Origin: a virus
Lineage: Duplodnaviria; Heunggongvirae; Uroviricota; Caudoviricetes
DNA length: 64,000 bases
Virus record (IMG/VR): IMGVR_UViG_3300035208_001055
Location: 56,494-120,493 of that record
Direction: 5' to 3' (one strand)
Of this stretch, positions 14,087-57,745 are shown one piece after another. How positions within the stretch are numbered: position 1 is the first letter of the stretch; each line of letters starts with the position of its first letter. A model generated the notes under the pieces. The model made no database searches. It saw only the letters and a program-made list of their open reading frames with translations, and was not told the origin of the DNA. Both the position numbers and the translations under genes were made by a program.

Positions 14087-14155
14087 TAACATCTGGCACC
14101 GCGCCACCCAAGTGAAACGGTGCCGGTACTTTTTCTACCGATGGTAGGCAAGCAG

Positions 14156-14230: not shown

Positions 14231-14236
14231 CGCAAG

Positions 14237-14906: not shown

Positions 14907-14921
14907 AACATACCTCCTATG

Positions 14922-18657: not shown

Positions 18658-18659
18658 AC

Positions 18660-31301: not shown

Positions 31302-31713
31302 TGACTGCCCCGAATACATTGTAGCCGCCGAGACCACGGGCGTGGCGATTCTCGTCTACTCCGGTGGTCCTCCGACCGCCATCTTCGAGAGCGTCAAGTA
31401 TGCTCTTTCCGGTGACGATCCGAAGGTCATTCGGAAATGGTCGAAGCCAACCGTTCACAAAGATGGTTCAATCGAGTATGCTCCAAATGAAGCTGAGCCG
31501 CCCGAGATCGAGGGGTACTCTCGTGACCCCAACAATCCCAGACGGCTCAAACCTTGCTGGCCACCTTGCGCGTGGCGTACTCTCCGCGTTTGGCGTGCGG
31601 ATAATGGTTCAGTGAAAATCACTTGTGGATGCGTGAATCCAACATCTGGTTACAAGCCGCATGAAGATGTCACGCTTGAAAACTGTAAGACCTGTGCTCG
31701 GCGCACCATCTAA
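31291..31713 (+). CDS. Cys-rich small protein (paralog B)
   Basis: EGYSRDPNNPRRLKPCWPPC...CGCVNPTSG...LENCKTCARR; shares the motif order with paralog A. Confidence 0.35.
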   Translation: MACDDCPEYIVAAETTGVAILVYSGGPPTAIFESVKYALSGDDPKVIRKWSKPTVHKDGSIEYAPNEAEPPEIEGYSRDPNNPRRLKPCWPPCAWRTLRVWRADNGSVKITCGCVNPTSGYKPHEDVTLENCKTCARRTI

Positions 31714-32285
31714 TTCTGGGCGACCGTAGATAATCCACTTCGATGGCCGTTGTCGTTCGTTACTAATTTGAACACCTTGCAATCTGCAAAGTCCACAAGT
31801 TTGCAACGCGAAACAAATACGCCAAATTGACGCAACTCTCTCCTTGTCGCTGCGGTCAATAAGTCATTCAACTTATCGGCCGCAATCATGTCAAGCAAGT
31901 CTTGTAGTGTGTGCTGTGCAATCACACTTACGACGGCTGCCTGTGTGATGTCATTGATCGTCGTATCGACATCCCAGTTTACGCGCCCGATGGCGTGAAC
32001 AACATCGCGTATCCGATAGACTACGACTGTTCCCACCACAACTTTCTTGTTGTCTCGCGTAGTCAAAACTTGTGTCGGTAGATTGAGCGTCTGTCGTGCC
32101 GTGACGATTACCTCAACCTCTGTGACAAGTGGCCAATACACATGGAGTCCAGCCAACATCGGCTTGACTTTGTGGCCATGACGCCACTTCACACCGCCGT
32201 GCGTTGCTCTAACAATCAAGACTCGCGGTATGAACCGCAAGATCGCTTCAAAAATCTGACCTAACCAAGCAAACGCCGTCTCCAT
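31710..32285 (-). CDS. SPFH/Band-7 domain protein
   Basis: QTLNLPTQVLTTRDNKKVVVGTVVVYRIRDVVHA matches the SPFH core (q.i.TkDn..v.vd.vv.yri.d). Confidence 0.45.
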   Translation of the reverse strand: METAFAWLGQIFEAILRFIPRVLIVRATHGGVKWRHGHKVKPMLAGLHVYWPLVTEVEVIVTARQTLNLPTQVLTTRDNKKVVVGTVVVYRIRDVVHAIGRVNWDVDTTINDITQAAVVSVIAQHTLQDLLDMIAADKLNDLLTAATRRELRQFGVFVSRCKLVDFADCKVFKLVTNDNGHRSGLSTVAQN

Positions 32286-32633: not shown

Positions 32634-35552
32634 TTAGGTCTCCTCCTTCAAGAAGGCCGTTCCAGCGCCAAAAATCTCGCCTTCTTCATCGTACTCGAAA
32701 TCGAACTCAATATCCTTGTCGGAATGTTCTTGATCCCAAATCGACACATCAGATCGAATCGACAAGTAATCAACACCGTTCTTCAACACGTCGGATAAAT
32801 CCTGACCTTCTGGGTAGCTCGCGTCCGCGACCTTGGCCTTAATGCGATCCACCGTCAAGAATCCATCCTCATTGATGCCACGGAAAAAGGAACTCAAAGT
32901 AGTCCAACGATCCGGTTGCTCACCCTTGCTGTCCACAATTCTTGTCTTATGAAGATCAAGAATGATATGGCCAGGAAGATTCGGTGGGTATGCTGGATTC
33001 GACGGCGAAGCAAGAACCAAGTCCAGGTTCAGGTTGGGCTTAACCGTGTGCTGTACTTCCGCGTAATTTGGCAAGACGCCAATTGACTGCGCATTGTAGC
33101 CCACGTCAGTCGGATGACGGTCGCCCCAATCACTGTGTTGTGTAAACACAACATTAGGACCGCCAACAATCACCATATCGCCACCGCCCCAATTTTCAAA
33201 GTAGCCAATAGGTAAAGTACCTGTAGCCCCCATCCCCTCGCCGTCGCCGCCTGCATCACCTGATGCAATCTCATCAGGCGGTGGCCACGTCAGCCAGATT
33301 GGTAGACCCGCAGGCCAGAACCAATTGTACTTCGTCATCTGTCCGGCGCGAATTGGCACGAGACAGGTAAAGTCAATCTGATTCGAGTCGGAATTGTAAA
33401 CAGCTTCCTCCACCAACACCTTAATTGTCCCGGTCGAAATGAAAGACTGGTCGAAATCCAATGTCACGCAGTCAAACGTTTCGAGATTCAGTTTATTCAA
33501 AAACGTGCTAAAGCGTATACGTTTCCAGGTCGAAGATTTCCGAATCAACCAGAATGTCGAGGCTTTATAAATCGTGTCTGGTTGATTGTAGATGTAGAAG
33601 TCGTACTCCTCTTCCACCACACCGTAGCGTTTCACGTTATGCCGAAGAATGATCGTTTTCTCACTCTTATCCTTTTCCCGATCCGTTTGACCGGGGGACC
33701 AACTCATTCGCCACAAGACTTTCATCTTTGTCACAATATCCTCGGTGGCTGTCAACTCTGTTTCAATCCCCGTCTCAGCATCAATATCACTCTCTGTGAT
33801 TGTGTCAACAGATGCCGGTTCCTCGGGTAGATATTGAATATAAAACTTCCCATTGTTAAGCCACAAAGCACATCTCGCTTGGAACGCGATGTCTTGAAGA
33901 ACTTCAACAGTATTCTTCCGATCCAAGATTGGAAAGTTTGCCGGAAATGGTGCCAACTTCGTTCGCACGTATTCAAACGAAACTGTGTCGTATGTCAAGT
34001 CCGTATAATGCTCGATCAGATAGATCAGGATGTCAATAATGTCCGGCCCGACACTCGATTGAAAAGTGACATAGAGATCGTCGGTCCAACCTTGCTCAGA
34101 GTATGAACTCAGTGGCCGTGTTGTCGTAATCTGGACTGTTGAGATAGCACCGTATGTAACATTGCTGATCGTGTAATAGGCCGATGGGACATCTACCAAA
34201 CGACGTTCCCCTGGAAACTCTTTGTAGGCTTTCACCGCGAGTACAGTACCAGGAATGATTGACACGATGTAAGTAATCGGTTCGTTGCTTGATATGCGTA
34301 CTGTCGCGCCTGGCTCCGCCCAAAACTGTTGCATCACAGCCGTGGATGAAATATCCGAAGCACGGCCACCTCCCCCGGCTGGAATCACAAATCCGTGTGC
34401 CCGACACTTACAATTTTCAACACTCACCGCCACACAGGTGCAAGCCACGTCGTAACTATAATCGTAGTCTACATTTTCCGGTGGCATCTCGCCACAGCCC
34501 TCGTCTTTACTGTCTGCCTGCGTGTCAGCTTCGTCCTCACCATCGGGCCAGTATCGACTTGAAATGTAGAAATTCGTTCCACTGAAATAACCAGTAAACT
34601 GCGCTCCATTGATGTCTAGTGTCAACGTCTGATTTTGTGGGAAGTCTTCACCGCCAAGAATCGGCAAAGGATTGGCACCAAGTCCACGGTTTTCGGCGTC
34701 CGCCAACTGGCTCGCTCGCTGCGATGCCGCGCAACTTGCTCGCATAGCCGCGCCTGCGACGATCCTTGCCATTTGATGATACAATTCATTGATCTGGTCA
34801 TTGATAATTTGTCCAGCCTCATTATCATTGCCATAACCATTGCAGTACGCAGCGCAATTCAACACGCCTAACTGTGCCGAAATCAAAGCCAAAGAAACAC
34901 CGATGCTAGTGTCGCTATTGGAACCTGTCTTGAATAGCGGAACACCGGCCGAGGCTCCTATGCCCGCCAAACAGCCAACACCAGCTAAGGTCGCGCCGCC
35001 AACAGCTTCGTTAATCTGAAGTGCCGGGCAATCTAAGACCGTGCCAAAAATCACCGGCCACGGTCGCCCCACCATCGCGGCCGGTAGCCATGTGAATTGA
35101 CCTTCTTCTGGGCTAAACCCGACTTCTTTATCTTCCAACTGTGAAATGATCGTAAACTTCACCGTCCGATCATGTTCACTCCACGAAATCGGCGAGCTAA
35201 TTTTTCCGGCGAACAAGAGAAACTTATCGGTCAGATCGAGCCCATCAAACCACTGATAGACGCGGGCTGTCCGCTTATGGATGTCGTGGGTATCAAAAAT
35301 CGTCTTGATGCTTCCATCCGTGTCATCAAGAACAACTTCAATTTGTTGAGACGTTGTATTGGCTGAGATGCCGACCGCGTTATCGAGTCCGCCTAACTCG
35401 ATTATCTTCCCCGGAGTATCAAGATCAATGTCACGGTCGCCATACCATTTCGGAGAAATACCATCGGCCCAGTCTACTTCGAGAAGTAGAACGGGTTCGG
35501 TTCCGTGGGTCTGTGCCAGCTTCGCAAGTCCTGCTGCTGATATAGTTCGCAT
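32634..35552 (-). CDS. Large tail protein (putative tail tip / host-specificity protein)
   Basis: 972-aa ORF at the distal end of the tail module, downstream of the fibers; no catalytic motif recognised. Confidence 0.45.
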   Translation of the reverse strand: MRTISAAGLAKLAQTHGTEPVLLLEVDWADGISPKWYGDRDIDLDTPGKIIELGGLDNAVGISANTTSQQIEVVLDDTDGSIKTIFDTHDIHKRTARVYQWFDGLDLTDKFLLFAGKISSPISWSEHDRTVKFTIISQLEDKEVGFSPEEGQFTWLPAAMVGRPWPVIFGTVLDCPALQINEAVGGATLAGVGCLAGIGASAGVPLFKTGSNSDTSIGVSLALISAQLGVLNCAAYCNGYGNDNEAGQIINDQINELYHQMARIVAGAAMRASCAASQRASQLADAENRGLGANPLPILGGEDFPQNQTLTLDINGAQFTGYFSGTNFYISSRYWPDGEDEADTQADSKDEGCGEMPPENVDYDYSYDVACTCVAVSVENCKCRAHGFVIPAGGGGRASDISSTAVMQQFWAEPGATVRISSNEPITYIVSIIPGTVLAVKAYKEFPGERRLVDVPSAYYTISNVTYGAISTVQITTTRPLSSYSEQGWTDDLYVTFQSSVGPDIIDILIYLIEHYTDLTYDTVSFEYVRTKLAPFPANFPILDRKNTVEVLQDIAFQARCALWLNNGKFYIQYLPEEPASVDTITESDIDAETGIETELTATEDIVTKMKVLWRMSWSPGQTDREKDKSEKTIILRHNVKRYGVVEEEYDFYIYNQPDTIYKASTFWLIRKSSTWKRIRFSTFLNKLNLETFDCVTLDFDQSFISTGTIKVLVEEAVYNSDSNQIDFTCLVPIRAGQMTKYNWFWPAGLPIWLTWPPPDEIASGDAGGDGEGMGATGTLPIGYFENWGGGDMVIVGGPNVVFTQHSDWGDRHPTDVGYNAQSIGVLPNYAEVQHTVKPNLNLDLVLASPSNPAYPPNLPGHIILDLHKTRIVDSKGEQPDRWTTLSSFFRGINEDGFLTVDRIKAKVADASYPEGQDLSDVLKNGVDYLSIRSDVSIWDQEHSDKDIEFDFEYDEEGEIFGAGTAFLKEET

Positions 35553-35953
35553 TATACCTGCTCCTCTCCCTCAAATTCAATGTCAATCACTTGCGTCTCG
35601 CCACGAGGCATGGGATTGATCGCCGGTGCTGCACGTTCTGTTGTTTCAAATTCAAATGGATTATTCAAAAAGTTGCCAATCCAGACGCGATCATTGTGAT
35701 CGACTATCCGAATCTTCGACGCAAAGTACGAAAAAATAAACGCCCTCAACTCCAAACCCTTTGGACGACTCAATTTGAAATTCCACTTGAGTTTCCGACG
35801 CCCGCCACGTGTCTTCACATAAGTGTACCGAGTGCCATCCATCGCCAACTTACGAGTTACCGTCACAAGCAGCGCTTCTTGATCGCTGAATTGCGGATTG
35901 GGAAGCGCAGTTGTCGTCTGCAACAGAGGGTATGGAGCTTCAAGTCGAAACAT
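35552..35953 (-). CDS. Hypothetical tail-module protein
   Basis: 133-aa ORF coupled to its neighbours. Confidence 0.3.
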   Translation of the reverse strand: MFRLEAPYPLLQTTTALPNPQFSDQEALLVTVTRKLAMDGTRYTYVKTRGGRRKLKWNFKLSRPKGLELRAFIFSYFASKIRIVDHNDRVWIGNFLNNPFEFETTERAAPAINPMPRGETQVIDIEFEGEEQV

Positions 35954-35962: not shown

Positions 35963-37450
35963 CTACAATTCTGCGTCGGCGATCCATTGGAACCACTGAA
36001 CGTCGTAGATATTGAAATCACCGGCACCAGACGCGATCCCAAAACCATTCATTCCAACTTCAATAATCTGCAACGCGCGATTCGCGTTGAACACTTGAAC
36101 CGTGTTATACTCGCCACTATGCCCAGCCTCACCGTTATAGGGCGAGTATAAAGTCGGCGACACACTTATTCGTTTGGTCGTAGCATACCGAACCATGAAA
36201 TTCTCGACCCACCATGCGTCACGACTACAACTACCAAAGGCACCTGTTCGTGTTGCAGTGGCAGGTGCAATATCGACATTGTAACTCTTCTCATAGTACC
36301 GTTGACAGAGTGCTAATTCGTCGCCATAGAAACGAGGTTTCCAGTCTTGTTCATAGTCAGCGGCCTGTGGATACAATCCGACTTCTGCAACGTCCAATGT
36401 TGTATCCTTCGCCACCACATTCTCGGTCCAAATGAAAACAATAGCATTGTTACATAAAGCACTTATAGTCCCAGACAAACGGACATCAGTTGCCACACCT
36501 GCCGTGAGCACAGTTGAACCGATGGCTGTTACCACCAAATTCGATCCTAAAAAGAAGTTGCCCGGAGTGTAAAGTACACTCGTCCAACTATTCACAACAT
36601 CACTTGTAACGGTATCTGCCGTCCCCGTCCATTCGAGAACCGCGTAGCGAACGGTCTGTGTCACACTCGAAGTGAGAGTTGCTTGAAAACCGACGATGCC
36701 ATCTCGCAGTGATTTTGAATTGTTGTATTCAACAATCTGCAAGAGTCCCATACGCTGTGCCAATGTTTGATGTTGCTTCATCCTACACTGCCACGCAGAA
36801 TATGCAGCGCCAGCTATTCGTGCGACCTGCACGGAGTTACTTTGTGTGAGTACCGCCCAACGATCCGGTCCATACGTGTCGTCCGTTCGAGATGTCAATG
36901 TAGCCGGAGTTTGTCGCTGAAAGAAATCAAAGCCACCATTGATAAGGCGACTGGCCGTAGCCTCTTGGCCCTTTGCTACCCAAGCTAACTTACCGGTGCC
37001 ATCAGTTTCCAGAACCTCACCCGAAACGCCATCCTTAATTGGGAACAGGAAGGGTGGAATCTCAAATTGGTCGCCCGTCGTAAAACGACGTTCTGCTCCC
37101 GCTTCGATTACGATAGGCTTGTAATGTGGATAGACTCGTTCTGTTTGCTCGCTGAGACTTACAACATCAGCGGTATCCACGTTAATAACATTTGTGTCGG
37201 CCGAGGCCAACACTTGAAGATACTGACGTGAAACACGTAGCTTCCCATCACTGGCCCCGAGGGCGTCCGCAAATTGTCTGGAAACTCTAATCGCGCCAAC
37301 ACCAGGGCCAACTCCATTCACGTACTGACGAGTGGCACGAAGTTTTCCGACGCCGGGGCCAACAGTATTAACGTACTGGCGTGTGGCGCGCAGTTTACCT
37401 GCACCGTCACCGAGCGAATCTGCGTATTGTCGTGTTACACGGAGTGCCAT
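35963..37450 (-). CDS. Tail fiber protein with N-terminal RVTRQY repeat module
   Basis: Five ~19-aa repeats ([17 protein letters not shown] / [17 protein letters not shown] ...), also present at the N-terminus of the 38590..41241 product. Confidence 0.5.
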   Translation of the reverse strand: MALRVTRQYADSLGDGAGKLRATRQYVNTVGPGVGKLRATRQYVNGVGPGVGAIRVSRQFADALGASDGKLRVSRQYLQVLASADTNVINVDTADVVSLSEQTERVYPHYKPIVIEAGAERRFTTGDQFEIPPFLFPIKDGVSGEVLETDGTGKLAWVAKGQEATASRLINGGFDFFQRQTPATLTSRTDDTYGPDRWAVLTQSNSVQVARIAGAAYSAWQCRMKQHQTLAQRMGLLQIVEYNNSKSLRDGIVGFQATLTSSVTQTVRYAVLEWTGTADTVTSDVVNSWTSVLYTPGNFFLGSNLVVTAIGSTVLTAGVATDVRLSGTISALCNNAIVFIWTENVVAKDTTLDVAEVGLYPQAADYEQDWKPRFYGDELALCQRYYEKSYNVDIAPATATRTGAFGSCSRDAWWVENFMVRYATTKRISVSPTLYSPYNGEAGHSGEYNTVQVFNANRALQIIEVGMNGFGIASGAGDFNIYDVQWFQWIADAEL

Positions 37451-37523: not shown

Positions 37524-38618
37524 CTACAATCGAATTGGAGGCATGATGTTCAACTGTAGTTCAGTTGTACTGAGTGCCTTTCCAAGTCGTTCGAGATATT
37601 CGCCCGAGCCATCGGGAGGTGTTGCGGTAATTTCACCGGCTGTCGTTTCACTCAAAAAGTAAATCGAGCCAGCCGACAACCCGCCAGTTGTTCCAGCCAC
37701 AGCGTCCCACTGGGTCGTGGTCGCCGTCAACACACCACCAAAACGAACGTTCCCACTCTCAGTTGTCGGAATTGACACATCAGAGACAAGTCCCAACACC
37801 TCAGTCGTCCCCACGGCATCAGCCTTGGCTTTGTCAATGTGTCCATTAGACTTGACATAAACCGGAGCGCAAATCACAATCGAACCGGCATTGTCATTTA
37901 CCTTGGCAACGTCGTCAACTCCGCTGGCACCTGTTGGTCCGGTAGGTCCAGTAGGTCCGGTAGCCCCATCTGGACCTGTCGGGCCGGTGGCCCCATCCGG
38001 GCCTGTTGGGCCTGTGGCTCCATCTGGTCCTGTTGGGCCTGTGGCTCCGTCTGGTCCTGTTGGGCCAGTGGCCCCAGTTTCACCCTGCGGACCTGTGGGG
38101 CCAGTCGCACCGTCCGGTCCTGTCGGGCCAGTGGCACCGTCTGGGCCTGTCGCCCCGTCCGGGCCTGTCGGGCCAGTGGCCCCATCTGGACCTGTCGGGC
38201 CAGTGGCCCCGTCTGGGCCGGTGGGACCTGTTGCCCCAGCGGGACCAGTTGGGCCAGTGGCCCCGGTCTCGCCCTGCGGCCCTGTGGGGCCAGTAGCCCC
38301 ATCCGGTCCTGTTGGGCCGGTGGCACCGTCCGGGCCTGTCGCCCCGTCCGGGCCTGTCGGGCCAGTGGCCCCATCCGGGCCGGTGGGACCTGTCGCCCCA
38401 TCTGGACCAGTTGGGCCGGTGGCCCCGGCGGGACCTGTTGGGCCAGTGGCCCCGGTCTCGCCCTGCGGCCCTGTGGGGCCAGTAGCCCCGTATGCCGGGT
38501 CAATGAAGTCCCCGTCCTGAATCCTCTCAATAAGCCCGTCAGTACCGAGCACCAGCGGTTTCTTTAACGCCATCTTAGCACCCTTTCTCTTAAAGACGAA
38601 TCGGTTCTTCAACCTCAA
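37524..38618 (-). CDS. Collagen-like triple-helix repeat protein (fiber component)
   Basis: About 70 uninterrupted G-X-Y triplets ([10 protein letters not shown]...). C-terminal globular domain ends ...[16 protein letters not shown]...PIRL. Confidence 0.7.
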
Positions 38619-41241
38619 TGTCTAACGTTTGTGTGGACGTAGCGCGCGCCGCACGCACCACGTAGCCACTGGTTGGAGCCGTCGTCACTAGACGCCCGGC
38701 CGTTGCGGCTGATATAAAATACATCTCACCCGGAGTCAATAAATCGGTCCCAGTGATGAGTGTCCAATTTGTTCTTGTAACTCGGCCTTCTGTCAGGTAA
38801 TATCCTGTGTGCCCGGCGCTTACATCCGCGTACAGCAAACCAATCGCGCCGGAGGCAGGTAAAACGTCCGCCTTTGCAGCATCAATGTGTCCATTTGATT
38901 TCACATAGACAGGAGTGCCAGCAAGCATCGTACTATCGGCCTCAGCATTAAACGCATCATCCGGCATCTCTTCTGGCGGTTCTGGTTCAGCAGGATTCAA
39001 CGATTCGTAATCATGTCGAATCCGCCGCAGAGGAGTACCTGGAATCCACGGGATTGCCTGTGGCGACCATGTTTCATCCAACGCGCCTTCAAAGTTGAAA
39101 CTCGCTGAGTAATTATTGAAACTATCTTCAATGATCGGGTCTTCAGGCGTTACAATGATGCCTCGCCAGTAACGTTGTTCCCAGTCGATCATACCGACTT
39201 CAACGCCGAGATGATCCGTGAAGAAATCGAGAAGGTCCTGTGCCTCGTCCCGCGTGAGTCCTGAGAAATTCAAAACATGTGTTTGGACTTTTGGCCATAT
39301 TGGGTCAGCAAAACTAATTGTCGTACCACCACGGGTCTCACGTAGGATTCGATTGAAAACAAGTTGATCGCGGTTCCCAAGGTTCGGAGAACACAGTGTC
39401 ACGGAATCCGTCACAACGCCCGTCGCTGGATAGACCAGTTGGAATGGGGCTGTGATACCGGGCATCGGTCCCGTCAGTGTTTCCGGTGGTGGTGTCGGTG
39501 CGCCTGCTGCTCCGGTGCCAACGAACGGATGGTAGACCCAAATACAGTCTTCCAGCCGATTGTACCATGCAAGTGACTCACTCAACTCAATTGAATCCGA
39601 CGCCGCAAGATTCCGAACAAGGCTACATGTAGCTTCGTCTGTGAGTTCAAGTTCATCTTCCGTCAGAATCGACGGAACGACAGTTGCTTCCTCTGTCAGT
39701 GAGATTGTGTCGTCAGCATCTAAAACGATGCTATTGTACGCTGCATCCGACAGACTAATCGTATCTGTCGCGTAGACGGCTATAGCATCAGCGCGTATGC
39801 GTATACAAGTTGCTTCTTCCGCAAACGAAAGATGGTCTTCGACCAGCTTTGGTTCAAACTTAACAACCGAAGCAGTCGCCTCATCTCGGAGTCCTTCATA
39901 CGTGATGATCGGTTCAAGTGTGACGGGATCATACGTGGTCCGAATCGTCTGCAAAGAGTCCGACGCATCAAGCCGTTGGAAACCGGGCCACACAGATTCA
40001 GTCAAGGTCGTGATCTGATCTTGAGCATGTCGGTAACGCACGCAACTGGCCACCGCCACGTCACTGAGGCTCAGTACATCGTCAACGGCATGGATAATTT
40101 CAACATCAACGTCTTCACTTAGTGTGAGTGTATCGGCGACAGCACGGCAATGCTCGCCAATAGACTCTTCACTCAGACTCAAGGTGTCTGATGCCTCGCA
40201 AATTCTTTCGACACTCGAAACGACAACTTCACCCAGTGTCAAAGACTCAGTGACATTACGCTCGAACACGCTAGTCAAGGAGGCTACTTCACCCAGGGTG
40301 ATTACATCAGAACAAATCCCAGGACGATCCGCCGTGGCTACTGCCAACTCAGATAAACTCAGCGTATCGACTGCGAATTTTGTAACATCAACATCGGCTA
40401 CTTCCGACAACGAGAGAGTGTCATCACACGTCCGCTCTTTGACAACGACGCCATCTGCTATGTCACTCAGACTAAGATTATCGGATGTATTTTTGTAGAG
40501 AACAAGATCATACGTGACGATTGCGTCAACTACAGTCAACGTATCCGACGCAAAGCACATGCGGTCAATTGTTGCAACAGCCGACTCAGAAAGCGAAAGT
40601 GTATCTATTGCAAGTTTCGCTAGGCTACAAATAGCCTCATCTGTTAGACTCAGCGTGTCAGTGACAGTAGGATATACGAAGCGATGCTGCAACACACCTT
40701 CAGCAAACGTGATCGTATCCGAGGCGCTAAGCGCACGATCAATTGTCATCTGCGCCAAATCAGACAGACTCAACGAATCTGTCACTGCCACAGATAACCC
40801 AGTGGCGCTTGCAACTTCAGTCAGACTGAGAGAATCCGATGCTTGCCGATTGTAGATACTGCCGCCAAGTCCGACACTCTCACTAAGAGTCAGAGTATCA
40901 CTCGTGGATACTCCCGCGTGCTCAATCAGGCACTCGGCTAATTCACTCACAGTCAGAAGATCAGTTACACTCGCCGAGATGCCTTCTTCGACGACAGCGA
41001 GAACGTCAACATACTGACGAGAAACACGAATCGCACCGGCAGCGCCACCCAGTGTTTCCGCAAATTGACGTGAGACTCGAATCTGACCAATCACGCCGCC
41101 GACCGCATTTACATACTCGCGTGTAGTGCGGAGTTGACCGTCAGGACTCCCGACAGCATTAACATACTGACGGGTGGCGCGCAGTTTCCCCGCGCCATCG
41201 CCAAGCGAATCTACGTATTGTCGGGTTACTCGGAGCGACAT
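38590..41241 (-). CDS. Large tail fiber protein with internal SLSE repeats
   Basis: N-terminal RVTRQY repeats; at least 18 degenerate ~17-aa repeats (..DTLSLSE..); C-terminal domain shared with the collagen-like protein ([16 protein letters not shown]...PIRL). Confidence 0.55.
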
Positions 41242-41258: not shown

Positions 41259-42284
41259 CTAACCGATCTTAATACCAAATTGCGCCGCATTCAAATCAGC
41301 CGTGGCCCAGGCGGCAGCGGTATTAGGATCAGTCTCTAACACCCTCTTAAACGTCACATAACTAGGGGTTCCCACGGACTGTGCCGTGTCATCGCTCTCT
41401 GTTGCCCCCGACTTGCACGGAATCTTGACGCTAAAATTATCTGCGTCTGTTTCTCGACAATCAACCCACGCAATCACGCCATTGATTGTCGTCAATGTTG
41501 TCGCGCCAAAGTTGTAGAGGTCTTTTTGATCCGTCGTGTCGTCCTCTACATAGTCTGTGTCATCATTTGCTATGGCGTCATCGACGCACGTATAGTTGTC
41601 TCCAGCGCTCGGTGAAAGTTGAGTCGAGTCACCGGCCGCATTTGGTCGCAAGGATTCAATCTTAACATTCCCGAGAAAGTCGTTGTTTGCGGCTCCCGAT
41701 GCGTCGCAAATATAAAAATCGTCGTAGTATGAATAGTTCAGCGACGTGGCCGTAATACGAACCCGGTCATGGTAGGCATTTGAGCCAGATTTCGTATCGA
41801 GACCCGTGCCGCTTCCCACCGTCACTCCACCGATGCGAACTTCATACGTACCTGTACTATCGTTGCATTTGATCTTAAACTCAACAAAGTACCAAATACC
41901 AGGACGCATACTCGCACCTGACGTTGTGCCCAATAACGTGCTGTCACGATAAACAGCGATTTCACCAGTGGCACGGAAACGAAAATTCACGCCCGCCGTC
42001 GCTCCATCATACAAAACCATAAATGCGCCTTCATCATACATGCGCGGGAATTTCACAGCTACGCCGATAATCAACGTATCGTTGGTCGTCAAGGCGGGTG
42101 TTTGGATATATGTAGAGCCGTCGTATGCCCAATACATACAGTAGCCGGTCCCAAATCGGCCGGTACTTATTCCCGAGTAGCCAGCTTGCGGTATACCAAC
42201 CCCGTACTTTCGTCCGAGTACGCCGGTCGGCAGAAAGTTGCCAGATGTCCCGTAATCTTCAAAACCATCGAGCCACAGAAGCAT
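41259..42284 (-). CDS. Tail fiber/receptor-binding paralog 1
   Basis: MLLWLDGFEDYGTSG ... AAQFGIKIG. Start moved to the internal Met so it tiles with paralog 2. Confidence 0.5.
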   Translation of the reverse strand: MLLWLDGFEDYGTSGNFLPTGVLGRKYGVGIPQAGYSGISTGRFGTGYCMYWAYDGSTYIQTPALTTNDTLIIGVAVKFPRMYDEGAFMVLYDGATAGVNFRFRATGEIAVYRDSTLLGTTSGASMRPGIWYFVEFKIKCNDSTGTYEVRIGGVTVGSGTGLDTKSGSNAYHDRVRITATSLNYSYYDDFYICDASGAANNDFLGNVKIESLRPNAAGDSTQLSPSAGDNYTCVDDAIANDDTDYVEDDTTDQKDLYNFGATTLTTINGVIAWVDCRETDADNFSVKIPCKSGATESDDTAQSVGTPSYVTFKRVLETDPNTAAAWATADLNAAQFGIKIG

Positions 42285-42294
42285 ATCGCACCTC

Positions 42295-43314
42295 CTAACC
42301 AACTTTGACACCAAACTGCGCAGCATTCAAATCCGTCAATGTCCACGTTGTTGATGTATTTGGATCAGTTTCTAACACACGTTGTTTCGTCACATAACTC
42401 GTCGTTCCAATAGACTGAGCCGAGTCATCATTCTCCGTCGCGCCTGACTTACATGGAGTCTTCAAACTAAACGCAGTGGCGTCCGATTGCCGACAATCTG
42501 TGCAAACCACGACGCCTTTGATGCTGTTCAATGTTGACGCGCCATAATTGTAAAGGTCCTTATGATCGGTTGTGGCATCGCTCACGTAATCCGTGTCGTC
42601 ATTGGCGACAGCCTCATCGACACACGCATAATTACTTCCGGCGCTCGGTGTAAACTCAGTCGTATCACCCGCCGAGTCCGGTCTCATTGTGACAACTTTT
42701 ACATTACCAAGAAAATCATTGTTCAAAGAACCTGATGTGTCGCACACGTAGAAGTCGTCGTAATATGTATGATTACGAGCGCCACAGACGATACGAACCC
42801 GATCATGGTAGGCATTTGAGCCAGCTTTCGTATCCAGACCAGAGCCACTTCCAACCGTCACACCGCCAACGCGAACTTCATACGTACCTGTGCTATCGTC
42901 GCATTTCACTTTGATTTCAATGTAATACCATTTTGTCTGACGTATGTTAGCGCCATTCGTTGTTCCGAGTAAAGTGCCGCCACGATAAATCTCAATCTCC
43001 CCGACAGGTGTGATCCAAAAATTCACTCCCCAAGTCGCACCGTCAAGTAGACTGAGAAATTGATAATTATAGTTGTAATACTTGGGGAATTTTATTGCCA
43101 AGCCAACAACTATTGTTGCGTCGGTTGTCAACGCCGGAGTCTGAATATAAACTCCGCTGTTCCATGTCATGTAGAAACAGTATCCGCCGAAACGTCCAGT
43201 GGAGATGCCGTAAGTGCCGTCAAGATTAGTGGTATACTTGCGCGACATCACGCCCGAAGGCGTGGGCGTGCCCGAGGTTCCATAGTTTTCAAAGCCATCA
43301 GCCCAAAGAAGCAT
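42295..43314 (-). CDS. Tail fiber/receptor-binding paralog 2
   Basis: MLLWADGFENYGTSG ... AAQFGVKVG. Confidence 0.5.
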   Translation of the reverse strand: MLLWADGFENYGTSGTPTPSGVMSRKYTTNLDGTYGISTGRFGGYCFYMTWNSGVYIQTPALTTDATIVVGLAIKFPKYYNYNYQFLSLLDGATWGVNFWITPVGEIEIYRGGTLLGTTNGANIRQTKWYYIEIKVKCDDSTGTYEVRVGGVTVGSGSGLDTKAGSNAYHDRVRIVCGARNHTYYDDFYVCDTSGSLNNDFLGNVKVVTMRPDSAGDTTEFTPSAGSNYACVDEAVANDDTDYVSDATTDHKDLYNYGASTLNSIKGVVVCTDCRQSDATAFSLKTPCKSGATENDDSAQSIGTTSYVTKQRVLETDPNTSTTWTLTDLNAAQFGVKVG

Positions 43315-43324
43315 AGTCCACCTC

Positions 43325-44356
43325 CTATCCTACCTTAACGCCAAACTGTGCGGCGTTCAAATTCGTTGGAGTCCATGCCGCCGACGTATTTGGGTCCGTT
43401 TCCAAGAGACGTTGTTTCGTTATGAAACTCGATGTCTGCACGGGAATCGCGGTGCCGTCACTTTCTGTGTCACCAGATTTGCACACAATCTTCAAATCCA
43501 TGTTATCGGCGTCCGTCTCACGGCAATCCGTGCAAACGGCGACACCGGCAATTGTTGTGAGCGATGTGTTTTCATAATTGTACAAATCTTTGTTGTCTGT
43601 TGTCCCGCTCTCCACGTAATCAGTATTATCGTTCAACGCAACCTCATCGACACAGGTATAGTTGCTTCCCGCACTCGGGGTAAACTGAGACGAGTCGCCG
43701 TCCGAATTAGGTCGCAATGTCACAACACGCATGTTTCCGAGAAAATCATTATTTGCTGACCCCGAGCCGTCAAGACAATATAAGTCGTCGAAATACGGAT
43801 TGCAAAGCGAACCACATCCAAAAATCCAGAACGTAGTGTGATAGGCATTTGAACCGGCCTTTGTATCGACACCTGTTGCGCTCAAAACACTCACGCCGCC
43901 AACATGAACTTCATACGTCCCCGTCGTATCGTTGCAAAGCACCTTTAGTTCCACGTAGTACCACGTGTTGATTTGTAAACCTAGACCGCTAGTTGTCCCC
44001 AACACAGTCGTTCCTCGGTACACGGCCAATTCACCGGCCGATGTCAAGCGTAAATTCACTCCAAGGGTTTCGCCATCATAAAATCGCACGAGTCCATCCG
44101 TATTAACCAAAGCACCAAACTTCAACGCCACTCCGACAACCATTGTTGCGTCAGTTGTCAAAGGTCCAGGCGAAAAACATCCCGCCGTGTCGGCAATCAA
44201 TTGTATTGCATACCCACTGAGGCGACCAGTCTCAACCTCGAAACGTGTGTCCTCATACATGATACGAGGATACCTGCGTGTCATTACGCCCGCAGGTTGC
44301 GGCGCGACACCTGTGCTTGTGCCGTAATTATCAAAACCATCTATCCACAGAAGCAT
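43325..44356 (-). CDS. Tail fiber/receptor-binding paralog 3
   Basis: MLLWIDGFDNYGTS ... AAQFGVKVG. Confidence 0.5.
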   Translation of the reverse strand: MLLWIDGFDNYGTSTGVAPQPAGVMTRRYPRIMYEDTRFEVETGRLSGYAIQLIADTAGCFSPGPLTTDATMVVGVALKFGALVNTDGLVRFYDGETLGVNLRLTSAGELAVYRGTTVLGTTSGLGLQINTWYYVELKVLCNDTTGTYEVHVGGVSVLSATGVDTKAGSNAYHTTFWIFGCGSLCNPYFDDLYCLDGSGSANNDFLGNMRVVTLRPNSDGDSSQFTPSAGSNYTCVDEVALNDNTDYVESGTTDNKDLYNYENTSLTTIAGVAVCTDCRETDADNMDLKIVCKSGDTESDGTAIPVQTSSFITKQRLLETDPNTSAAWTPTNLNAAQFGVKVG

Positions 44357-44445
44357 GGCAGCACCTCGTTAAAAAGAGAAAACAGGCCGAGCCGAGCCGA
44401 AACTCGGCCCGACCTTGGCGAGGGAGAGACCCTTGCAATTCCTTG

Positions 44446-45057
44446 TTACGCACTGACTGTATACGTGACCTTCAACTGGTCATTGTCCGCAACAGTCACG
44501 GTGCCCGAACTAAACTGGGCTCCGTTCCACAGAGTACCGCCACCGGCGGCATCATTCTTTGTGGCAGGAGCAGTACCGCCACCAACCAACGCAATGCCAT
44601 ACACCGATCCACTGGCACTAATTGTGAACACGACTGGTGAGGCATTGGTAATCGACTGGCTCGCCGATGCACCTTCTGTCCACTCTTGACGAGTTGCCTC
44701 ATCATAGTCGTCCCACTCGTCCCAGGCATTGGTGCCGTTGATTTGTGCATACGTATCACCAGCCGCAGGCGTCGGTGAACCGGCCCCATCAATCAGCAAC
44801 AGATACCACGTGGCGATCTGGGTTGCAGCGTGGAACATGACATCCAGCAACTTGTTCTTGCCTTGGTTGGTAATCAGATTGGGTGCCTCATAGCGACCAA
44901 TCATTTCACCATTGCGCCAATGTTCCACAACAAAACGACCCTTCGGATTGATTAAATCACGAAGGCGAAACCGTTGTGTAACAGCTTCATCGGAACTCGC
45001 GGCGGGTACTAACTCACACGCCGCGCCCTCTCGGATCGACAAACGATCAACACTCAT
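44446..45057 (-). CDS. Hypothetical tail protein
   Basis: 203-aa ORF immediately after the tape measure gene. Confidence 0.3.
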   Translation of the reverse strand: MSVDRLSIREGAACELVPAASSDEAVTQRFRLRDLINPKGRFVVEHWRNGEMIGRYEAPNLITNQGKNKLLDVMFHAATQIATWYLLLIDGAGSPTPAAGDTYAQINGTNAWDEWDDYDEATRQEWTEGASASQSITNASPVVFTISASGSVYGIALVGGGTAPATKNDAAGGGTLWNGAQFSSGTVTVADNDQLKVTYTVSA

Positions 45058-45069: not shown

Positions 45070-48000
45070 CTACTTTAGAGTTACTACACCGCGCCGTACA
45101 AGCCGATTTAGTTCGGACGCGATAGACTTGGCCGTTTGGCGACCCGTATCGCCGCCTTGGACCGTGACGTTAATATCACCGATGCTCGTTGTTACGTTGC
45201 CACCGTCATTACGATAGACGGGTTGAACACCGGCGTTCATCGCAATCAACTGAGAAGCAAACTTTTGTGTTGCTCCCGCGTTCATTACAAATTCACCTTT
45301 TGAAAGCCAAGCTGGTATCACATCCGTGCCAGCCGGGCCACCGGCCGCGAGGTATCGACCAATCCTGCCACCTCGGGCCGCGTACTCCGTCCCTGTCGCC
45401 GATGGAGTCTTCACAGAGCGTGAAGCACTTGCAAGACTCCACATCTGCGCCGCCGCAGCGCTAATCTGATTCACCAATCCACTCATATCAAGTTGTGCGA
45501 CTTGCGACAACGAACTTGCCGCAGCGGCAGCCGCCGACTTGCCTTGGTCTATGGGTTGAACAGCCTGTGTCGCCGAGTTCTTCAACTCCTGAAGAATCCG
45601 CTGTATCTCTTGGGCTTCCGTGGCCTTAGCTTTCGCGCGAGGCAACTCTTGCTGTAACTGCATTGCCTTCTTAGCTGCATCCGCTTGCGCGCCTGCGTCC
45701 TGCATAAACTGGTCGTACTGTGCCTTCAACTCCTTTGGAGGCTTCACCGAATCCAGATACTTCTCATACGACTTCTTGAGTTGCAGGAAATCCTTTTCAG
45801 TGGTCTTTTCGGGCGCGATCTTCGTGAAGGCTTGTGCAGCCCGCATAAATTCGCTACCTTGACGTGCCATCTGGCGAGACAAGTCTTCGCGGTCTTCCTT
45901 CCACCGTGGATTAAACAGGTCCGAAAGTTTTGGCCCACCTTGAGCAATCTCTTGAATTTTCTTTCCCGCTTCCGCGAGACTTTCTTTCGCATTTTTATTC
46001 GTTCGGATCAACGACTTGTTATAATCAGCAATCTGGCCAATCAACTCTTCGTAGCCCGATATAGCTTCCATGCCGCTTGCCATCTCACGGCTATAGATGC
46101 CATATCGTTGCTCCGCCGGAAGTCCAGCGAGTTCCTTCCGTAGACGTTCAGGCAACTGCGTCTCCGCTGTCTTAATCGCAATCGTGATCGGACCAACACC
46201 CGTCTCAATTTGATCGTGTAACGCCTTGATTGCCGCTGGCAACGCCATCAACTCACGTATCTGTGTCTTTGAAACACCGCCTTCCATTGCCAGTTGCACA
46301 CGTTGTTGCAACTTGTCAACCGAAAGCATCTGAGATATGTCAGTTGGGGGAGCCAATTTCAACAGACGTGAAAGATTTTCTTGCAGTCGTTCGCGTTGTT
46401 GTTGCAGTTTCAACGGGTCTTTCGGACCTTCCTTGTCGAAAGATTGAAGATCAGACAAAATCTGCTTCATCAGAACACGGCTATCGTCAAGGTCCTTCTG
46501 CTTTTGAGCCGCCTCACGGGCTGTCTTCATAGAGGCTTGTGCCATGATAGCCGAGAGTTTTTTTTGTGCCCCATTCTTTTGTAACATGATCGAAAGAATG
46601 TTCCGCTCGGCGTCTTCTTGAAGACGTGTATCCCCCGTAGCTTGTGCCTGTTGAGCGGCCTCTTGAGCGAATGCGTCTGCACGTTGTTGAATAGCCTGTG
46701 CCGCCGCAACGTCCTCGGGCGTCTTCGCCTCCCGCATCTTCGCAACAGCCTCGTTCGTCAATTGCCGCGAACGACCCTGCGCAGCAATAGTCTTCTCATA
46801 GGCGTCCTTGTTTCGTTGTTGGAACGTGAAAACAGCGTCAGCATACGCCGCTTCGCCATTGACCTGTTCCTCGTGTGCGTGGCGTGATGCGTCCGCCTGC
46901 GCCTTGGCGGCATTTCGATAAGCCGAGACGACCCGTTCCTGCGACTCAATCAGCGAAGACATCGTTTCGCGTGCGTCGTCTATCAGAACCTTGTTATCTT
47001 CTTTCAGTTTATCGAGGAGGTCAAAGTGCTTCTTACGAATCTCCGACATCCCATTTTCCCACTCCTTCAACTCATCGCGTTGCTGTTTCTTCAAGTCATC
47101 AATGCGTTGTTGTCGTTTCGCGGCGTCATCGCGGAGTTCGTCAATCAATGCTTGCCTGCGCTCTTGGGCATTCTTTCGGATTGCGGCAAGTTCCATCGCA
47201 CTCAAGTAAGTAGATGCACCTGCGTAGGTCATGGCTGCCACTGTAATGGCACCCAAAGCGATTCCTAGTGGGCCGAGTCCAGCGGTCGCAGCCATTGCGG
47301 CAATAGCCAAAGCGCCCAATACCGGAATCAATATCATTGCCGCCGAAGCAAGACCTTGGATCGCAGCCGCCATTCGATCAGCGCCGCCAATCCACTGCAT
47401 CATGTTTCCAAGAGTCTCAACAATCATGTTACCGAAATCACGTGTCAGTGTGACTCGGAGAGAGTTGATGTTCGATGTCAGCTTTTCAGCAGGCATCTTT
47501 GTGAATTGTTCATATATCTGGTCCAGCGTATCGGCCGTTGTCTTTGCCATGACCTCCTGGGCCGCTTTATACTTCTCAGCCTCATCTCGACCCAAACTCA
47601 AAACAGCCGTCATGGCGCGAATGTTTCGCACATTCTCACCAATCTCACCAGCCATCCCGTGAGATGCCTTCGTAATTCCTTCAAAGGAACCAATGAGACC
47701 TTTAGCAGCGATCATCTGTTCTGGGTCCGTGAAACCCATACTTCGCATCGTCTTCTTCATCTCTTCCGAAGGTTTGATGATCGCAACCATTGCCTGACGC
47801 AAACCGGTTGCGGCTTTATGAGCGTCAAGACCACCAATCGTCATCGACACGTAGGCAGAGTTGACTTCATCCAAGGAGACCTTCAACTGAGCGGCAATTG
47901 GGATCACTTGGCCAATCGTGTCGGACAACTCCTTTCCACGAACGCGCCCCAACTCAATCGTTCGGAAGAATTTCGCAGCCACGGTCGCTGCTTGATCCGA

Positions 48001-48789
48001 AGACATGCCATACGCATTGAGAGTTCCAGTCAACAACTCGACGGAGCTACCTAAATCCATAACAGCGACGCGCGACAACTTCATCGCTGCCTGCATGATA
48101 TTGTTGCGTTCCGTCACAGTGGTAAACTGATCGGAAATTGTCTCATACAAACCCTCCGCCACTTGTGGCAGGGGAATGTTGAATTTCTTCGACATCTCTG
48201 CAACTTCGTCAGAGAGGGTTTGGAATGACGCCGTAACCGGAGCGATAGTCGAAATCTCAGCGATCTGTCGCTGGAAATCAATCGCTGATTCTGTGGCATC
48301 TGAAAGTGCCTGCCGCACCTGCGAAAAAGCACGCACGATCATCTGTGTGACGACAATACGACCAAGCATCGAAAGCGAGATAGAGAAATTCTTCGCCGCA
48401 TTGTTTGCCCGGTTGAGTGCTTCTTCACCCTTCATCCCGGTCATACGGAGTTGGTCGCCGACGACAGAAACTTTTCCGCCGTATTGACTTGTCAAGGCGA
48501 TGGCACTTTGTATGCGGGACAATGTTTCAGGCGTTGCCACGGACGCAGAAGCAGCCGAAGTCGCGGTCGCAGCGCCGCCCACGGTTGGAAGTGTCATCTT
48601 GGACGCCAACGTAGCCATCTCCCGCATCGTGGCTAGGGCCGTCTGTGCAGTCGAGTTCCACGACTGCATAGCGCCCGCGTGCGCGGAGAAAGACGAGGCC
48701 GACGATTGAAGTTGACTATCCAACTTCTGAAGCGCAGACAGCGCATCTTGTACGTCGAATCCAAGTTTATTGACAATTTCGTCAGCCAT
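45070..48789 (-). CDS. Tail tape measure protein
   Basis: 1239 aa, Ala/Gln-rich with coiled-coil character and a central hydrophobic segment (AAMILIPVLGALAIAAMAATAGLGPLGIALGAITVAAM), placed between the chaperones and the distal tail genes. Confidence 0.75.
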   Translation of the reverse strand: MADEIVNKLGFDVQDALSALQKLDSQLQSSASSFSAHAGAMQSWNSTAQTALATMREMATLASKMTLPTVGGAATATSAASASVATPETLSRIQSAIALTSQYGGKVSVVGDQLRMTGMKGEEALNRANNAAKNFSISLSMLGRIVVTQMIVRAFSQVRQALSDATESAIDFQRQIAEISTIAPVTASFQTLSDEVAEMSKKFNIPLPQVAEGLYETISDQFTTVTERNNIMQAAMKLSRVAVMDLGSSVELLTGTLNAYGMSSDQAATVAAKFFRTIELGRVRGKELSDTIGQVIPIAAQLKVSLDEVNSAYVSMTIGGLDAHKAATGLRQAMVAIIKPSEEMKKTMRSMGFTDPEQMIAAKGLIGSFEGITKASHGMAGEIGENVRNIRAMTAVLSLGRDEAEKYKAAQEVMAKTTADTLDQIYEQFTKMPAEKLTSNINSLRVTLTRDFGNMIVETLGNMMQWIGGADRMAAAIQGLASAAMILIPVLGALAIAAMAATAGLGPLGIALGAITVAAMTYAGASTYLSAMELAAIRKNAQERRQALIDELRDDAAKRQQRIDDLKKQQRDELKEWENGMSEIRKKHFDLLDKLKEDNKVLIDDARETMSSLIESQERVVSAYRNAAKAQADASRHAHEEQVNGEAAYADAVFTFQQRNKDAYEKTIAAQGRSRQLTNEAVAKMREAKTPEDVAAAQAIQQRADAFAQEAAQQAQATGDTRLQEDAERNILSIMLQKNGAQKKLSAIMAQASMKTAREAAQKQKDLDDSRVLMKQILSDLQSFDKEGPKDPLKLQQQRERLQENLSRLLKLAPPTDISQMLSVDKLQQRVQLAMEGGVSKTQIRELMALPAAIKALHDQIETGVGPITIAIKTAETQLPERLRKELAGLPAEQRYGIYSREMASGMEAISGYEELIGQIADYNKSLIRTNKNAKESLAEAGKKIQEIAQGGPKLSDLFNPRWKEDREDLSRQMARQGSEFMRAAQAFTKIAPEKTTEKDFLQLKKSYEKYLDSVKPPKELKAQYDQFMQDAGAQADAAKKAMQLQQELPRAKAKATEAQEIQRILQELKNSATQAVQPIDQGKSAAAAAASSLSQVAQLDMSGLVNQISAAAAQMWSLASASRSVKTPSATGTEYAARGGRIGRYLAAGGPAGTDVIPAWLSKGEFVMNAGATQKFASQLIAMNAGVQPVYRNDGGNVTTSIGDINVTVQGGDTGRQTAKSIASELNRLVRRGVVTLK

Positions 48790-55301: not shown

Positions 55302-56453
55302 TCACGGATAGAAACGAAGCCAATCCAAATTCTTACGATCCTCGTGAACTTCGTACCACCCTTTTCCATGTAAATCAGAAAGCATCTCAAAATATTCCTG
55401 ATACTTGTAACGTACCCTGTCCATCGAGTAATTTGCCATCGTGCGTTGATGCGTATACCACGTGTCAATTTCGCCAATATGTTTTGCTGCCCAAATGAAT
55501 TGATCTAACGTATGACATCGAAATCCTGTTTTTCCATGTTCAACTGTTTCTGGGAAAACACCAAAGTCTGTTGTGATAACAGGCGTACCGCACATCTGCG
55601 CTTCAACCGCCACTGTTCCAAAGGGTTCAATATACAAAGTAGGAACAAATGCTGCTTTTGCATTTTGAAGCAACGCATCCCGTTCCTTGCCGATTACCGG
55701 CCCAACATACTGGATATGATCGCCGGTGTAGGTGCTTCCATCACTACAAGTAATCTTGTTGCCCTCTTGTTTGGCACCTTGGCCCGCCATAATCAATTGT
55801 GCGCCAATGCGTCGAGTTGTTTCGACTGCAATCTCAAGTCCCTTACGGCGGACCATTCTTCCAAGATATAGGTAGTAATCTTGTTTCTCGGCCTTGTAGG
55901 TGTATTCATCCGGGTCAAGATAATTAGGAATCACCACATCATACAAATGTCCATCAGGGTCAAAACCACCTTGAGCACCCCAAATCTTGTGCATGTGGGC
56001 ATAAGATTCAAAAACTCGGTAATTCGCAAAAGGACCATTATATCCGATGCCATACTCAACAGTCAAAACGTCCTTATCCAACAACTGCACAATAGGTTGA
56101 TTCAAGCGTCCCATAATGACGCAAACGAAATCACCCTTCCGCTGTCTCTTTTTGATTTCCGAGGCCGACCGTTCGTTAAGCAGTTTCCAGTATTCCGCTT
56201 TACCCGTCCAGTCGGCACTGTAAAGTTTGTTGATGTCGAAAGGTCCGAACCAACCCTCTTGTTCCTTCGCCGACAAAACAACCACGTCCTCAGCCCACTC
56301 AGATACTTCGCTATTCTCGGCTCCATAATGGATCACTTCGTGACCGAGGCTGTTCATCATCCTAATGAAACGAAGAATCTTGATTGTGAAAGCGCACGCC
56401 GTGTGGCGTTTGCTTGTTTGTGTATGAGGTAAACCAACAACATGAAATCTCAT
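55302..56453 (-). CDS. Glycosyltransferase, GT4-like (GT-B fold)
   Basis: C-terminal EPFGTVAVEAQMCGTPVITTDFGVFPETVEHGKTGFRC (E-x7-E GT1/GT4 signature). Confidence 0.7.
   Translation of the reverse strand: MRFHVVGLPHTQTSKRHTACAFTIKILRFIRMMNSLGHEVIHYGAENSEVSEWAEDVVVLSAKEQEGWFGPFDINKLYSADWTGKAEYWKLLNERSASEIKKRQRKGDFVCVIMGRLNQPIVQLLDKDVLTVEYGIGYNGPFANYRVFESYAHMHKIWGAQGGFDPDGHLYDVVIPNYLDPDEYTYKAEKQDYYLYLGRMVRRKGLEIAVETTRRIGAQLIMAGQGAKQEGNKITCSDGSTYTGDHIQYVGPVIGKERDALLQNAKAAFVPTLYIEPFGTVAVEAQMCGTPVITTDFGVFPETVEHGKTGFRCHTLDQFIWAAKHIGEIDTWYTHQRTMANYSMDRVRYKYQEYFEMLSDLHGKGWYEVHEDRKNLDWLRFYP

Positions 56454-56536: not shown

Positions 56537-57745
<1,209 letters not shown>

Follow-up and report, generated by a model that had tools for sequence, protein, structure and literature searches.

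Why should a tailed phage encode three versions of one small protein, back to back, among its tail genes? The question is raised by a window of 64,000 nucleotides (the whole stretch of DNA analysed here, positions 56,494 to 120,493 of the IMG/VR virus record IMGVR_UViG_3300035208_001055, Caudoviricetes), in which a first-pass annotation had noticed three tandem paralogs of about 340 amino acids and proposed that they are diversified receptor-binding proteins or tail-spike adaptors, or else a substrate for recombinational switching. We use F as shorthand for this paralog family and name its copies A, B and C in gene order. Sequence comparison and structure prediction suggest that the F proteins are, on balance, probably diversified glycan-binding accessory proteins of the tail tip, that is, receptor-binding adhesins. 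The array is composed as follows.

43325-44356, minus strand: F copy A, 343 amino acids, the first paralog in the array; matches PHROG family phrog_2448 over its full length (E 1.8e-46) and the family hidden Markov model (HMM) with 523 bits
43315-43324, minus strand: A-B spacer, 10 base pairs (bp), in which the stop codon overlaps the Shine-Dalgarno site (TAGGAGGTGGACTATG)
42295-43314, minus strand: F copy B, 339 amino acids
42285-42294, minus strand: B-C spacer, 10 bp, in which the stop codon overlaps the Shine-Dalgarno site (TAGGAGGTGCGATATG)
41259-42284, minus strand: F copy C, 341 amino acids from the MLLW start; matches phrog_2448 (E 5.2e-39)

The three open reading frames encode proteins that are 54-64% identical in pairs from end to end, with 143 invariant columns in the alignment of the three, and that score 486-523 bits with the family HMM, far above chance; their description as tandem paralogs is thereby borne out. 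Both gaps between the genes measure exactly 10 bp, as had been claimed, and both contain TAGGAGGTG, followed by ATG. In copy A, GAGGT is found 7 nucleotides upstream of the ATG. Copy C had been listed as a reading frame of 355 amino acids (41259-42326), starting at an in-frame upstream ATG at 42326 that would overlap copy B; the MLLW start at 42284 is likely, because AGGAGGT stands upstream of this ATG and because the 341-residue counterpart is called as a gene on a near-identical (99.9%) contig, L083. The sequence motifs that the first-pass annotation gave as common to all copies do lie within the invariant columns, except that YIQTPALTTDAT is limited to copies B and C. Likewise, the ends are nearly identical as protein, with 79-86% identity in residues 1-14 and a conserved C-terminal LNAAQFG(V/I)K(V/I)G, and not as DNA, the first 39 nucleotides being only 74-87% identical; at the DNA level the array repeats with a period of 1030-1036 nucleotides and an identity of 60-76%. 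All three copies are intact and co-oriented, each has its own Shine-Dalgarno site, and they have positional orthologs in other genomes (see below); they are therefore not pseudogenes, a condition that had been named as speaking against a receptor-binding array.

F belongs to a large family. The matches to phrog_2448 (E 2.7e-42 for copy B) cover profile positions 1-333 of 335; this PHROG is listed as function unknown, without functional annotation, and nothing sets the three copies apart from the rest of it. A word-indexed search retrieved 322 relatives at E<=1e-5, the best 120 of which are 318-362 amino acids long and, wherever the source gives a name, are called hypothetical. An exhaustive profile search of metagenomes matched 23,942 clusters at 50% identity with E<=1e-3, and 8,360 with E<=1e-30. 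Pfam has nothing above threshold for the three copies, only one sub-threshold match to SO2946-like_C; no sequence relative of the family is found in PDB even at E<=10, and megablast finds no near-identical DNA in cultured phages. The family is huge, and it is without a Pfam model, a solved structure or an assigned function.

We modelled copy B with AlphaFold2, using 59 homologs. The model has high internal scores (pLDDT 95.5, pTM 0.92; a second AlphaFold model has pLDDT 93.1) and consists of two beta domains, an N-terminal concanavalin A (ConA)-like jelly roll at residues ~1-195 (nucleotides 42730-43314) and a C-terminal sandwich resembling a carbohydrate-binding module (CBM) at residues ~205-339 (nucleotides 42298-42702). 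The modelled N-domain superposes on the concanavalin A-like lectin/glucanase fold, a two-sheet jelly roll, at the superfamily level, and its nearest matches are polysaccharide lyases, lectins and phage carbohydrate-binding modules. The modelled C-domain is similar in fold to CBM families with a galactose-binding-like beta-sandwich, and its matches include the alginate lyases AlyQ and AlyB. Many lectin and CBM domains are found among the fold matches of F, and the question whether the products are beta-sandwich or lectin-like can be answered in that both predicted domains have folds of the carbohydrate-binding type. The conserved MLLW-DGF N-terminus makes the first strand of the predicted jelly roll and the conserved C-terminus the last strand of the protein. 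In these monomer models there is no shaft, beta-helix, coiled coil or separate docking domain; neither an elongated trimeric tailspike or fibre architecture with an N-terminal docking domain nor a Dit-type N-terminal belt domain (related to the tail tube and forming a hexameric ring) is seen. The 'tail-spike adaptor' part of the initial proposal is thus not upheld, as each protein is predicted to be two compact globular beta domains without an anchor.

Folds of this kind serve both binding and catalysis. Among alternatives to a binding role, the one that survives best, even if we consider it unlikely, is that F proteins are polysaccharide lyases or hydrolases (depolymerases), which would combine a catalytic ConA-like domain with a C-terminal CBM and either ride on the tail or be set free at lysis; the capsule or exopolysaccharide that is cut would differ from paralog to paralog. 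A jelly roll combined with a CBM32-like module is indeed the architecture of AlyQ and AlyB, and 6 of 59 family members have sub-threshold similarity to the Pfam polysaccharide lyase family PF14099 (best E 1e-3). The window copies, however, do not match PF14099 and reach no Pfam lyase threshold; nor does any of them match Laminin_G_3 (PF13385), which is detected in 1 of 59 family members (E 1.6e-6). The Pam4 homolog of F has been labelled 'polysaccharide lyase' by its depositors; we take this label to be based on prediction, because the Pam4 paper states BLASTp and HHpred as the basis of its annotation and contains no mention of a lyase.

To see which residues are kept over long distances, we aligned distant members to the family HMM, taking them from Lu11, Brevundimonas phage Delta, Pam4, phiCbK, a Mesorhizobium phage and a 595-kb uncultured phage, and from contigs binned to Acidimicrobiales, Fimbriimonas and Nitrospirae. 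D6-G7-F8, R41, W129, E133, T162, D186, D187, Y189 and D192 are kept in the distant members, together with the NNxFLG linker, P212, Y243, D253, P318 and W324. The candidate lyase catalysts Y169, H170 and K135, on the other hand, are conserved in close relatives and replaced in Lu11, Delta, Pam4, phiCbK, Mesorhizobium phage and the huge phage. The pattern of conservation makes the set R41, E133, T162, D186, D187, Y189 and D192 resemble a structural or calcium site more than a catalytic one. In one database protein (P0241, 999 amino acids), five ConA-like N-domains are strung in tandem along a single chain; such a layout is unusual for a catalytic domain and would be typical for multivalent binding modules. 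We rank binding above catalysis because the catalytic candidates are not kept and because of these five tandem N-domains.

The multiple alignment that the first-pass annotation had advised for mapping variable regions shows where the copies differ. In an alignment of 136 family members, column entropy peaks at residues 15-100, and insertions are concentrated behind residues 14, 30, 178 and 261; conservation is strongest in residues 1-14, in the linker (195-205) and at the C-terminus. Within arrays (96 pairs), identity falls to 0.34 at residues 15-100 as compared to 0.43-0.63 elsewhere. Divergence is concentrated in a part of the N-terminal domain predicted to be rich in loops.

The genomic surroundings of F are strongly conserved. 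In the window, they consist of the following genes, given in the order of transcription, with the array lying between X and Y.

45070-48789, minus strand: tape measure protein, 1239 amino acids (12 PHROG tape-measure families, best E 3e-29; PF10145 on orthologs)
44446-45057, minus strand: gene X, 203 amino acids, small and beta-rich; homologous in 65 related loci
38590-41241, minus strand: gene Y, 883 amino acids, repeat-rich, fibre-like, directly after the array; homolog downstream of the array in 67 loci
37524-38618, minus strand: collagen-like fibre protein, 364 amino acids (Pfam Collagen, E 3.5e-30; PHROG tail-fibre families)
35963-37450, minus strand: second fibre-like protein, 495 amino acids, with an N-terminal LRVTRQYV repeat module (phrog_4492, tail fiber, E 1.3e-14)
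35552-35953, minus strand: gene Z, 133 amino acids, small tail-module protein; homologous in 55 related loci (E down to 5e-70)
32634-35552, minus strand: gene W, 972 amino acids; homologous in 48 loci (E = 0); N-terminus matches phrog_2048, 'tail protein' (E 6e-6)

The tape measure gene two genes upstream and the fibre-like and collagen-like proteins directly downstream confirm that the array lies in the tail region. We compared 74 distinct viral loci with F relatives, and further places for particular proteins. In nearly all loci the order is tape measure protein (~1250 amino acids), X (160-240), a variable number of F, Y (400-880), Z (~130) and W (~1000); the module is found in ~70 loci, X, Y, Z and W being homologous across them, and X is nearly always directly ahead of the F array. 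Full-length F genes were counted in 77 sources (76 fetched loci and the window, including a few duplicate loci): there is one in 46 of them, two in 15, three in 7, four in 4 and five in 5. No link between this number and the length of Y is apparent by eye.

The arrays are old. Each of the five copies in locus L044 is closest to the copy of the same rank in L035/L036 (64-90% identity, vs 37-50% to its own neighbours), and pairing by rank is seen also in the five-copy arrays of L040 and L060, while a two-copy locus, L005, matches ranks 1 and 2. Copy A of the window pairs with copy 1 of the related phage L001 (64-65% identity) and copy B with its copy 2 (66-67%). The nearest relatives of copy C are copy B (64%) and copy 2 of L001 (65%), so that the B/C duplication is younger or partly homogenised, and copy C is probably, to judge from these identities, a later duplicate of B. 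Lineage-specific duplications are seen in L019 and L025. The long life of positional orthologs indicates that each F copy is individually maintained and separately useful. A fixed heterotrimer of the three paralogs was considered and is ruled out by the presence of one to five copies with the same neighbouring genes; variable copy number next to constant neighbours argues against a fixed hetero-oligomer in general.

The same evidence bears on a second alternative, namely that F proteins are structural blocks of the tail tip or baseplate, in which paralogs would take distinct, non-equivalent places in hetero-oligomeric or stacked rings and the lectin-like folds would be mere scaffolds. The position of the array right after the tape measure gene and X, the usual place of core tail-tip genes, agrees with this, as do the strong conservation of the N-terminus, the inter-domain linker and the C-terminus, and the stability of positional orthologs over long divergence; in addition, BppU of mycobacteriophage Douge, which has a CBM similar to that in F, assembles into a 12-mer ring that encircles the distal tail protein (PMC13033339). 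Yet the copy number, varying from one to five with the same X, Y, Z and W, is hard to square with fixed stoichiometry, the family is also found in unrelated tail types (a jumbo myophage, separate fibre cassettes), and nothing in the F models resembles the Dit belt or the BppU ring domain. We regard a structural role as rather improbable.

Proteins downstream of the array look like fibres in their own right. The N-terminal 109 amino acids of Y, made of LRVTRQYV-type repeats, are 60% identical to the 495-residue protein, and its C-terminal 107 amino acids are 44% identical to the 364-residue collagen-like protein; the sharing of modules by all three amounts to the mosaic pattern expected for true fibre proteins. 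In L001, a single fibre gene (500 amino acids) occupies the position of the window's three. One database protein, P0208 (820 amino acids), is a full F protein fused to a Y-type fibre protein, which may mean either that the two proteins are physically linked or that a stop codon has been lost. Further downstream, Z and W have no match in PDB or Pfam, by profiles or by sequences; gene W is a candidate for the hub or central fibre of the tail. Just downstream of W, at 31710-32285 on the minus strand, there is an SPFH/Band 7 protein (Pfam E 2.9e-19), and L001 has a Band_7 protein of 186 amino acids (18153-18713) two genes downstream of its W ortholog, which suggests that the gene is conserved along with the module.

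Gene X gives a link to a virion protein of solved structure. A profile built for X finds chain U of PDB 26la ('Structural protein', 171 amino acids; E 5e-12), which is 100% identical, by tblastn of the aligned fragment, to gp08 of the Pseudomonas podophage KPP25 (L093), encoded directly after the head-closure protein. Proteins of X type are, by this match, real virion components elsewhere. X is related also to a protein of Methanosarcina virus MetMV (hit H41; 44.7% identity over 78% of the length), which has two such places; as far as sequence matches can tell, this distribution, over a podophage and an archaeal virus, is unusually wide for a small tail protein. X and F occur independently of each other, KPP25 and MetMV having X and not being among the F matches. 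A literature mention of the related phage Cootes contains nothing on the gp08-type protein.

In cultured phages, relatives of F are always found in or beside tail genes. Gp35 of Pam4 lies between baseplate-region genes and a protein of 1290 amino acids, gp31 of Brevundimonas phage Delta (vB_BsubS-Delta) among 'minor tail proteins', and gp243 of Lu11, in a jumbo myophage context, downstream of a tail fibre gene; in Mesorhizobium phage Cp1R7A-A1, two tandem copies, gp113 and gp114, come right after two putative tail fibre genes. The literature that we found on phage Delta contains no proteomics, and searches for virion proteomics of Lu11 and phiCbK yielded nothing of direct use. Tandem or near-tandem arrays exist also in a Nitrospirae-binned contig (L090, 4778-8924, three copies), the 595-kb uncultured phage LR756511 (L091, 8992-11380, two copies) and a Mesorhizobium phage (L092, 7941-10050, two copies). 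At L091 and L092, where 6 kb or more of flanking sequence is available on either side, no match to X, Z or W was found; the L090 stretch ends ~1.1 kb past its array. Since these sequences are not evidently of the window's lineage, tandem expansion appears to be recurrent in the family rather than confined to one lineage.

Taken together, the placement among tail-module genes, the predicted folds of carbohydrate-binding type, the divergence focused on loops and the intactness of all copies argue for the part of the initial proposal that saw in F diversified receptor-binding proteins, shorn of adaptors and, as is explained below, of switching. Other observations weigh against this assignment. 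The very best fold matches of the F model are enzymes (PL20, PL36 and PL14 polysaccharide lyases, and Cip1), not lectins. The models have no separate anchoring domain, which bears on the mode of attachment to the tail. We found no family member that has been shown in a virion, shown to bind sugar, or present in a solved structure. In phiCbK, gp315 is the last gene ahead of the lysis cassette (endolysin, holin and spanin), and in the GenBank record it does not carry the note 'virion-associated protein' given to its two large neighbours gp317 and gp319. On the supporting side, contig L083, from JGI metagenome 3300037067, represents the same phage as the window (4611-7708 vs 41259-44356, 99.89% identity), and 5 of the 10 differences between the two are in F genes (T37I and C181Y in copy A, N52D and K78E in copy B, S308N in copy C); all five are nonsynonymous and in variable loops, with no synonymous change, while the other differences include one synonymous and two nonsynonymous changes in the tape measure gene and one synonymous change in X. 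This pattern of five to zero is suggestive, but the sample is too small for significance.

The position of gp315 and its missing virion note would better suit a third alternative, that F proteins are late accessory proteins outside the virion, acting for example on the envelope of infected or neighbouring cells, in progeny release or superinfection exclusion. A further element in its favour lies between X and copy A.

44384-44415, minus strand: terminator-like GC-rich hairpin with a 14-pair stem, 9 of the pairs GC, followed by a run of T (GTTTTCTCTT)

The hairpin has a predicted energy of about -24 kcal/mol and lies ~28 nucleotides ahead of the copy A ATG. At ~24 of ~74 related loci, about a third, a hairpin with a T-run of unrelated sequence is present at the same position; this suggests, from sequence, that attenuation of transcription between X and the genes for F and the fibres is conserved. 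Against a role outside the virion, the array is flanked by tail genes on both sides in ~70 loci, with tight coupling, the fusion of F to Y exists in P0208, and, in the model, the N-terminus of F already forms the first jelly-roll strand, so that there is no room for a separate leader sequence. We find such a role very doubtful.

That the array serves recombinational switching or cassette exchange, as tandem paralogs with ends conserved at the protein level had led the first-pass annotation to propose, has next to no chance of being true, since the copies are only 58-66% identical as nucleotides, with longest exact matches of 13-22 nucleotides and largely randomised synonymous sites (residues that are identical are encoded by the same codon in only 43-51% of cases), are co-oriented, each with its own start and Shine-Dalgarno site, contain no inverted repeats, have no related DNA elsewhere in the 64-kb window by blastn and hence no template repeat or silent cassette there, and have positional orthologs that are stable between genomes. 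The ends are conserved as protein because of purifying selection on the protein, and not by gene conversion. Gene conversion or recombination cassettes, shufflons or other invertible cassettes, and diversity-generating retroelements were each considered and are ruled out by the short DNA matches, the lack of inverted repeats and the lack of a template repeat.

Glycan-binding accessory proteins of the tail tip, as we suppose F proteins to be, have counterparts in siphophage baseplates, where BppA of Tuc2009 is a baseplate accessory carbohydrate-binding protein. We compared F with BppU of phage Douge (PDB 8ZDO) and with the CBM-bearing 'evolved' Dit of Lactobacillus phage J-1 (PDB 5LY8). There is no sequence similarity to either, and F has neither a ring domain at its N-terminus, as in BppU, nor a Dit-type belt domain; instead, it has an N-terminal ConA-like domain followed by a second, CBM-like domain, and comes as one to five tandem paralogs. 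From the jelly-roll lyases with appended CBMs that were compared, namely the PL20 glucuronan lyase (2ZZJ), PL36 Aly36B (6KCV), PL14 vAL-1 (3A0N) and the PL7 + CBM32 enzyme AlyQ (5XNR), F differs in falling below Pfam thresholds and in having no His, Tyr or Lys catalytic set conserved family-wide.

Phages with side-by-side receptor-binding paralogs are known, among them CBA120 with its four tailspikes and the multi-depolymerase Klebsiella phage K64-1, in which a single virion can thereby address several surface glycans. The F array is like these in that several diverged paralogs are encoded in tandem in the tail region. The tailspikes of CBA120 and K64-1 are large beta-helix trimers that have docking domains at the N-terminus; F proteins, in contrast, are small (~340 amino acids), globular and two-domain, with no recognisable docking module.

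The rest of the window is that of a siphophage-type genome, with genes on the minus strand. The large terminase, portal, collagen-like protein, glycosyltransferase, head-tail adaptor and major capsid protein could be identified, and are followed by unannotated small proteins and then by the tape measure protein. The glycosyltransferase (phrog_3408, E 8e-79) and the collagen-like protein, the second one in the window (402 amino acids), are encoded at 55302-56453 and 56537-57745 on the minus strand, inside the head module; their place between portal and head-tail adaptor hints at glycosylated or collagen-decorated capsids. Four transfer RNA genes (Met, Pro, Thr and Ile) are clustered at 14013-14995 on the minus strand; a listed reading frame of 304 amino acids (13992-14906) is probably not a gene, because three of the four overlap it.

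The likely host of this phage can be named as well. When bacterial genomes were scanned, four genome bins of Planctomycetota proved to carry F genes. In one of them, a 2.58-Mb Pirellulales contig (CAWJUD010000002.1; L084, the same as L077), the complete module from tape measure through X, F, Y and Z to W is found at ~1.875-1.896 Mb, with phage-size genes without Pfam matches in the upstream flank and genes of bacterial type (radical SAM, peptidase U32, alpha/beta hydrolase) downstream; a frameshifted F remnant (L087) lies in a 5.7-Mb Pirellulales contig. Because of these prophages, bacteria of the order Pirellulales (Planctomycetota) are the likely hosts of the phage lineage. To our knowledge, the phage biology of this group is almost uncharacterised.

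The course of events that we propose for the F array would begin with one ancestral gene, whose old tandem duplicates now make part of the large uncharacterised PHROG 2448 family, each specifying a compact, two-domain, all-beta protein with a predicted ConA-like jelly roll and CBM-like sandwich. The genes would be expressed from the tail operon through translational coupling, and their products may be low-copy accessory parts of the tail tip or fibre apparatus. There they would bind host surface polysaccharides, each paralog having a different specificity set by hypervariable loops at residues ~15-100, and the phage would carry several adhesins together, beside its three fibre proteins.

It is already known that several diverged sugar-recognition proteins on one tail can broaden or safeguard host recognition; the principle is therefore not new, and the case is a further example of carbohydrate-recognition paralogs in phage tails. 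What is added here is a confident fold prediction, a conserved context, one to five copies with positional orthologs and a plausible link to Pirellulales, all for a huge uncharacterised family. Going beyond the window, one may tentatively entertain the idea that PHROG 2448 is a major unrecognised class of host-recognition proteins, a self-contained ConA-like and CBM 'plug-in adhesin' (or depolymerase), expanding into stable arrays with as many as five copies of differing function; it might then be the main determinant of host range in a Pirellulales siphophage lineage and display several glycan specificities at once. If the binding or the lyase activity is real, tens of thousands of 'hypothetical' phage proteins would become annotatable, and the family would offer a natural collection of diversified modules for glycan recognition.

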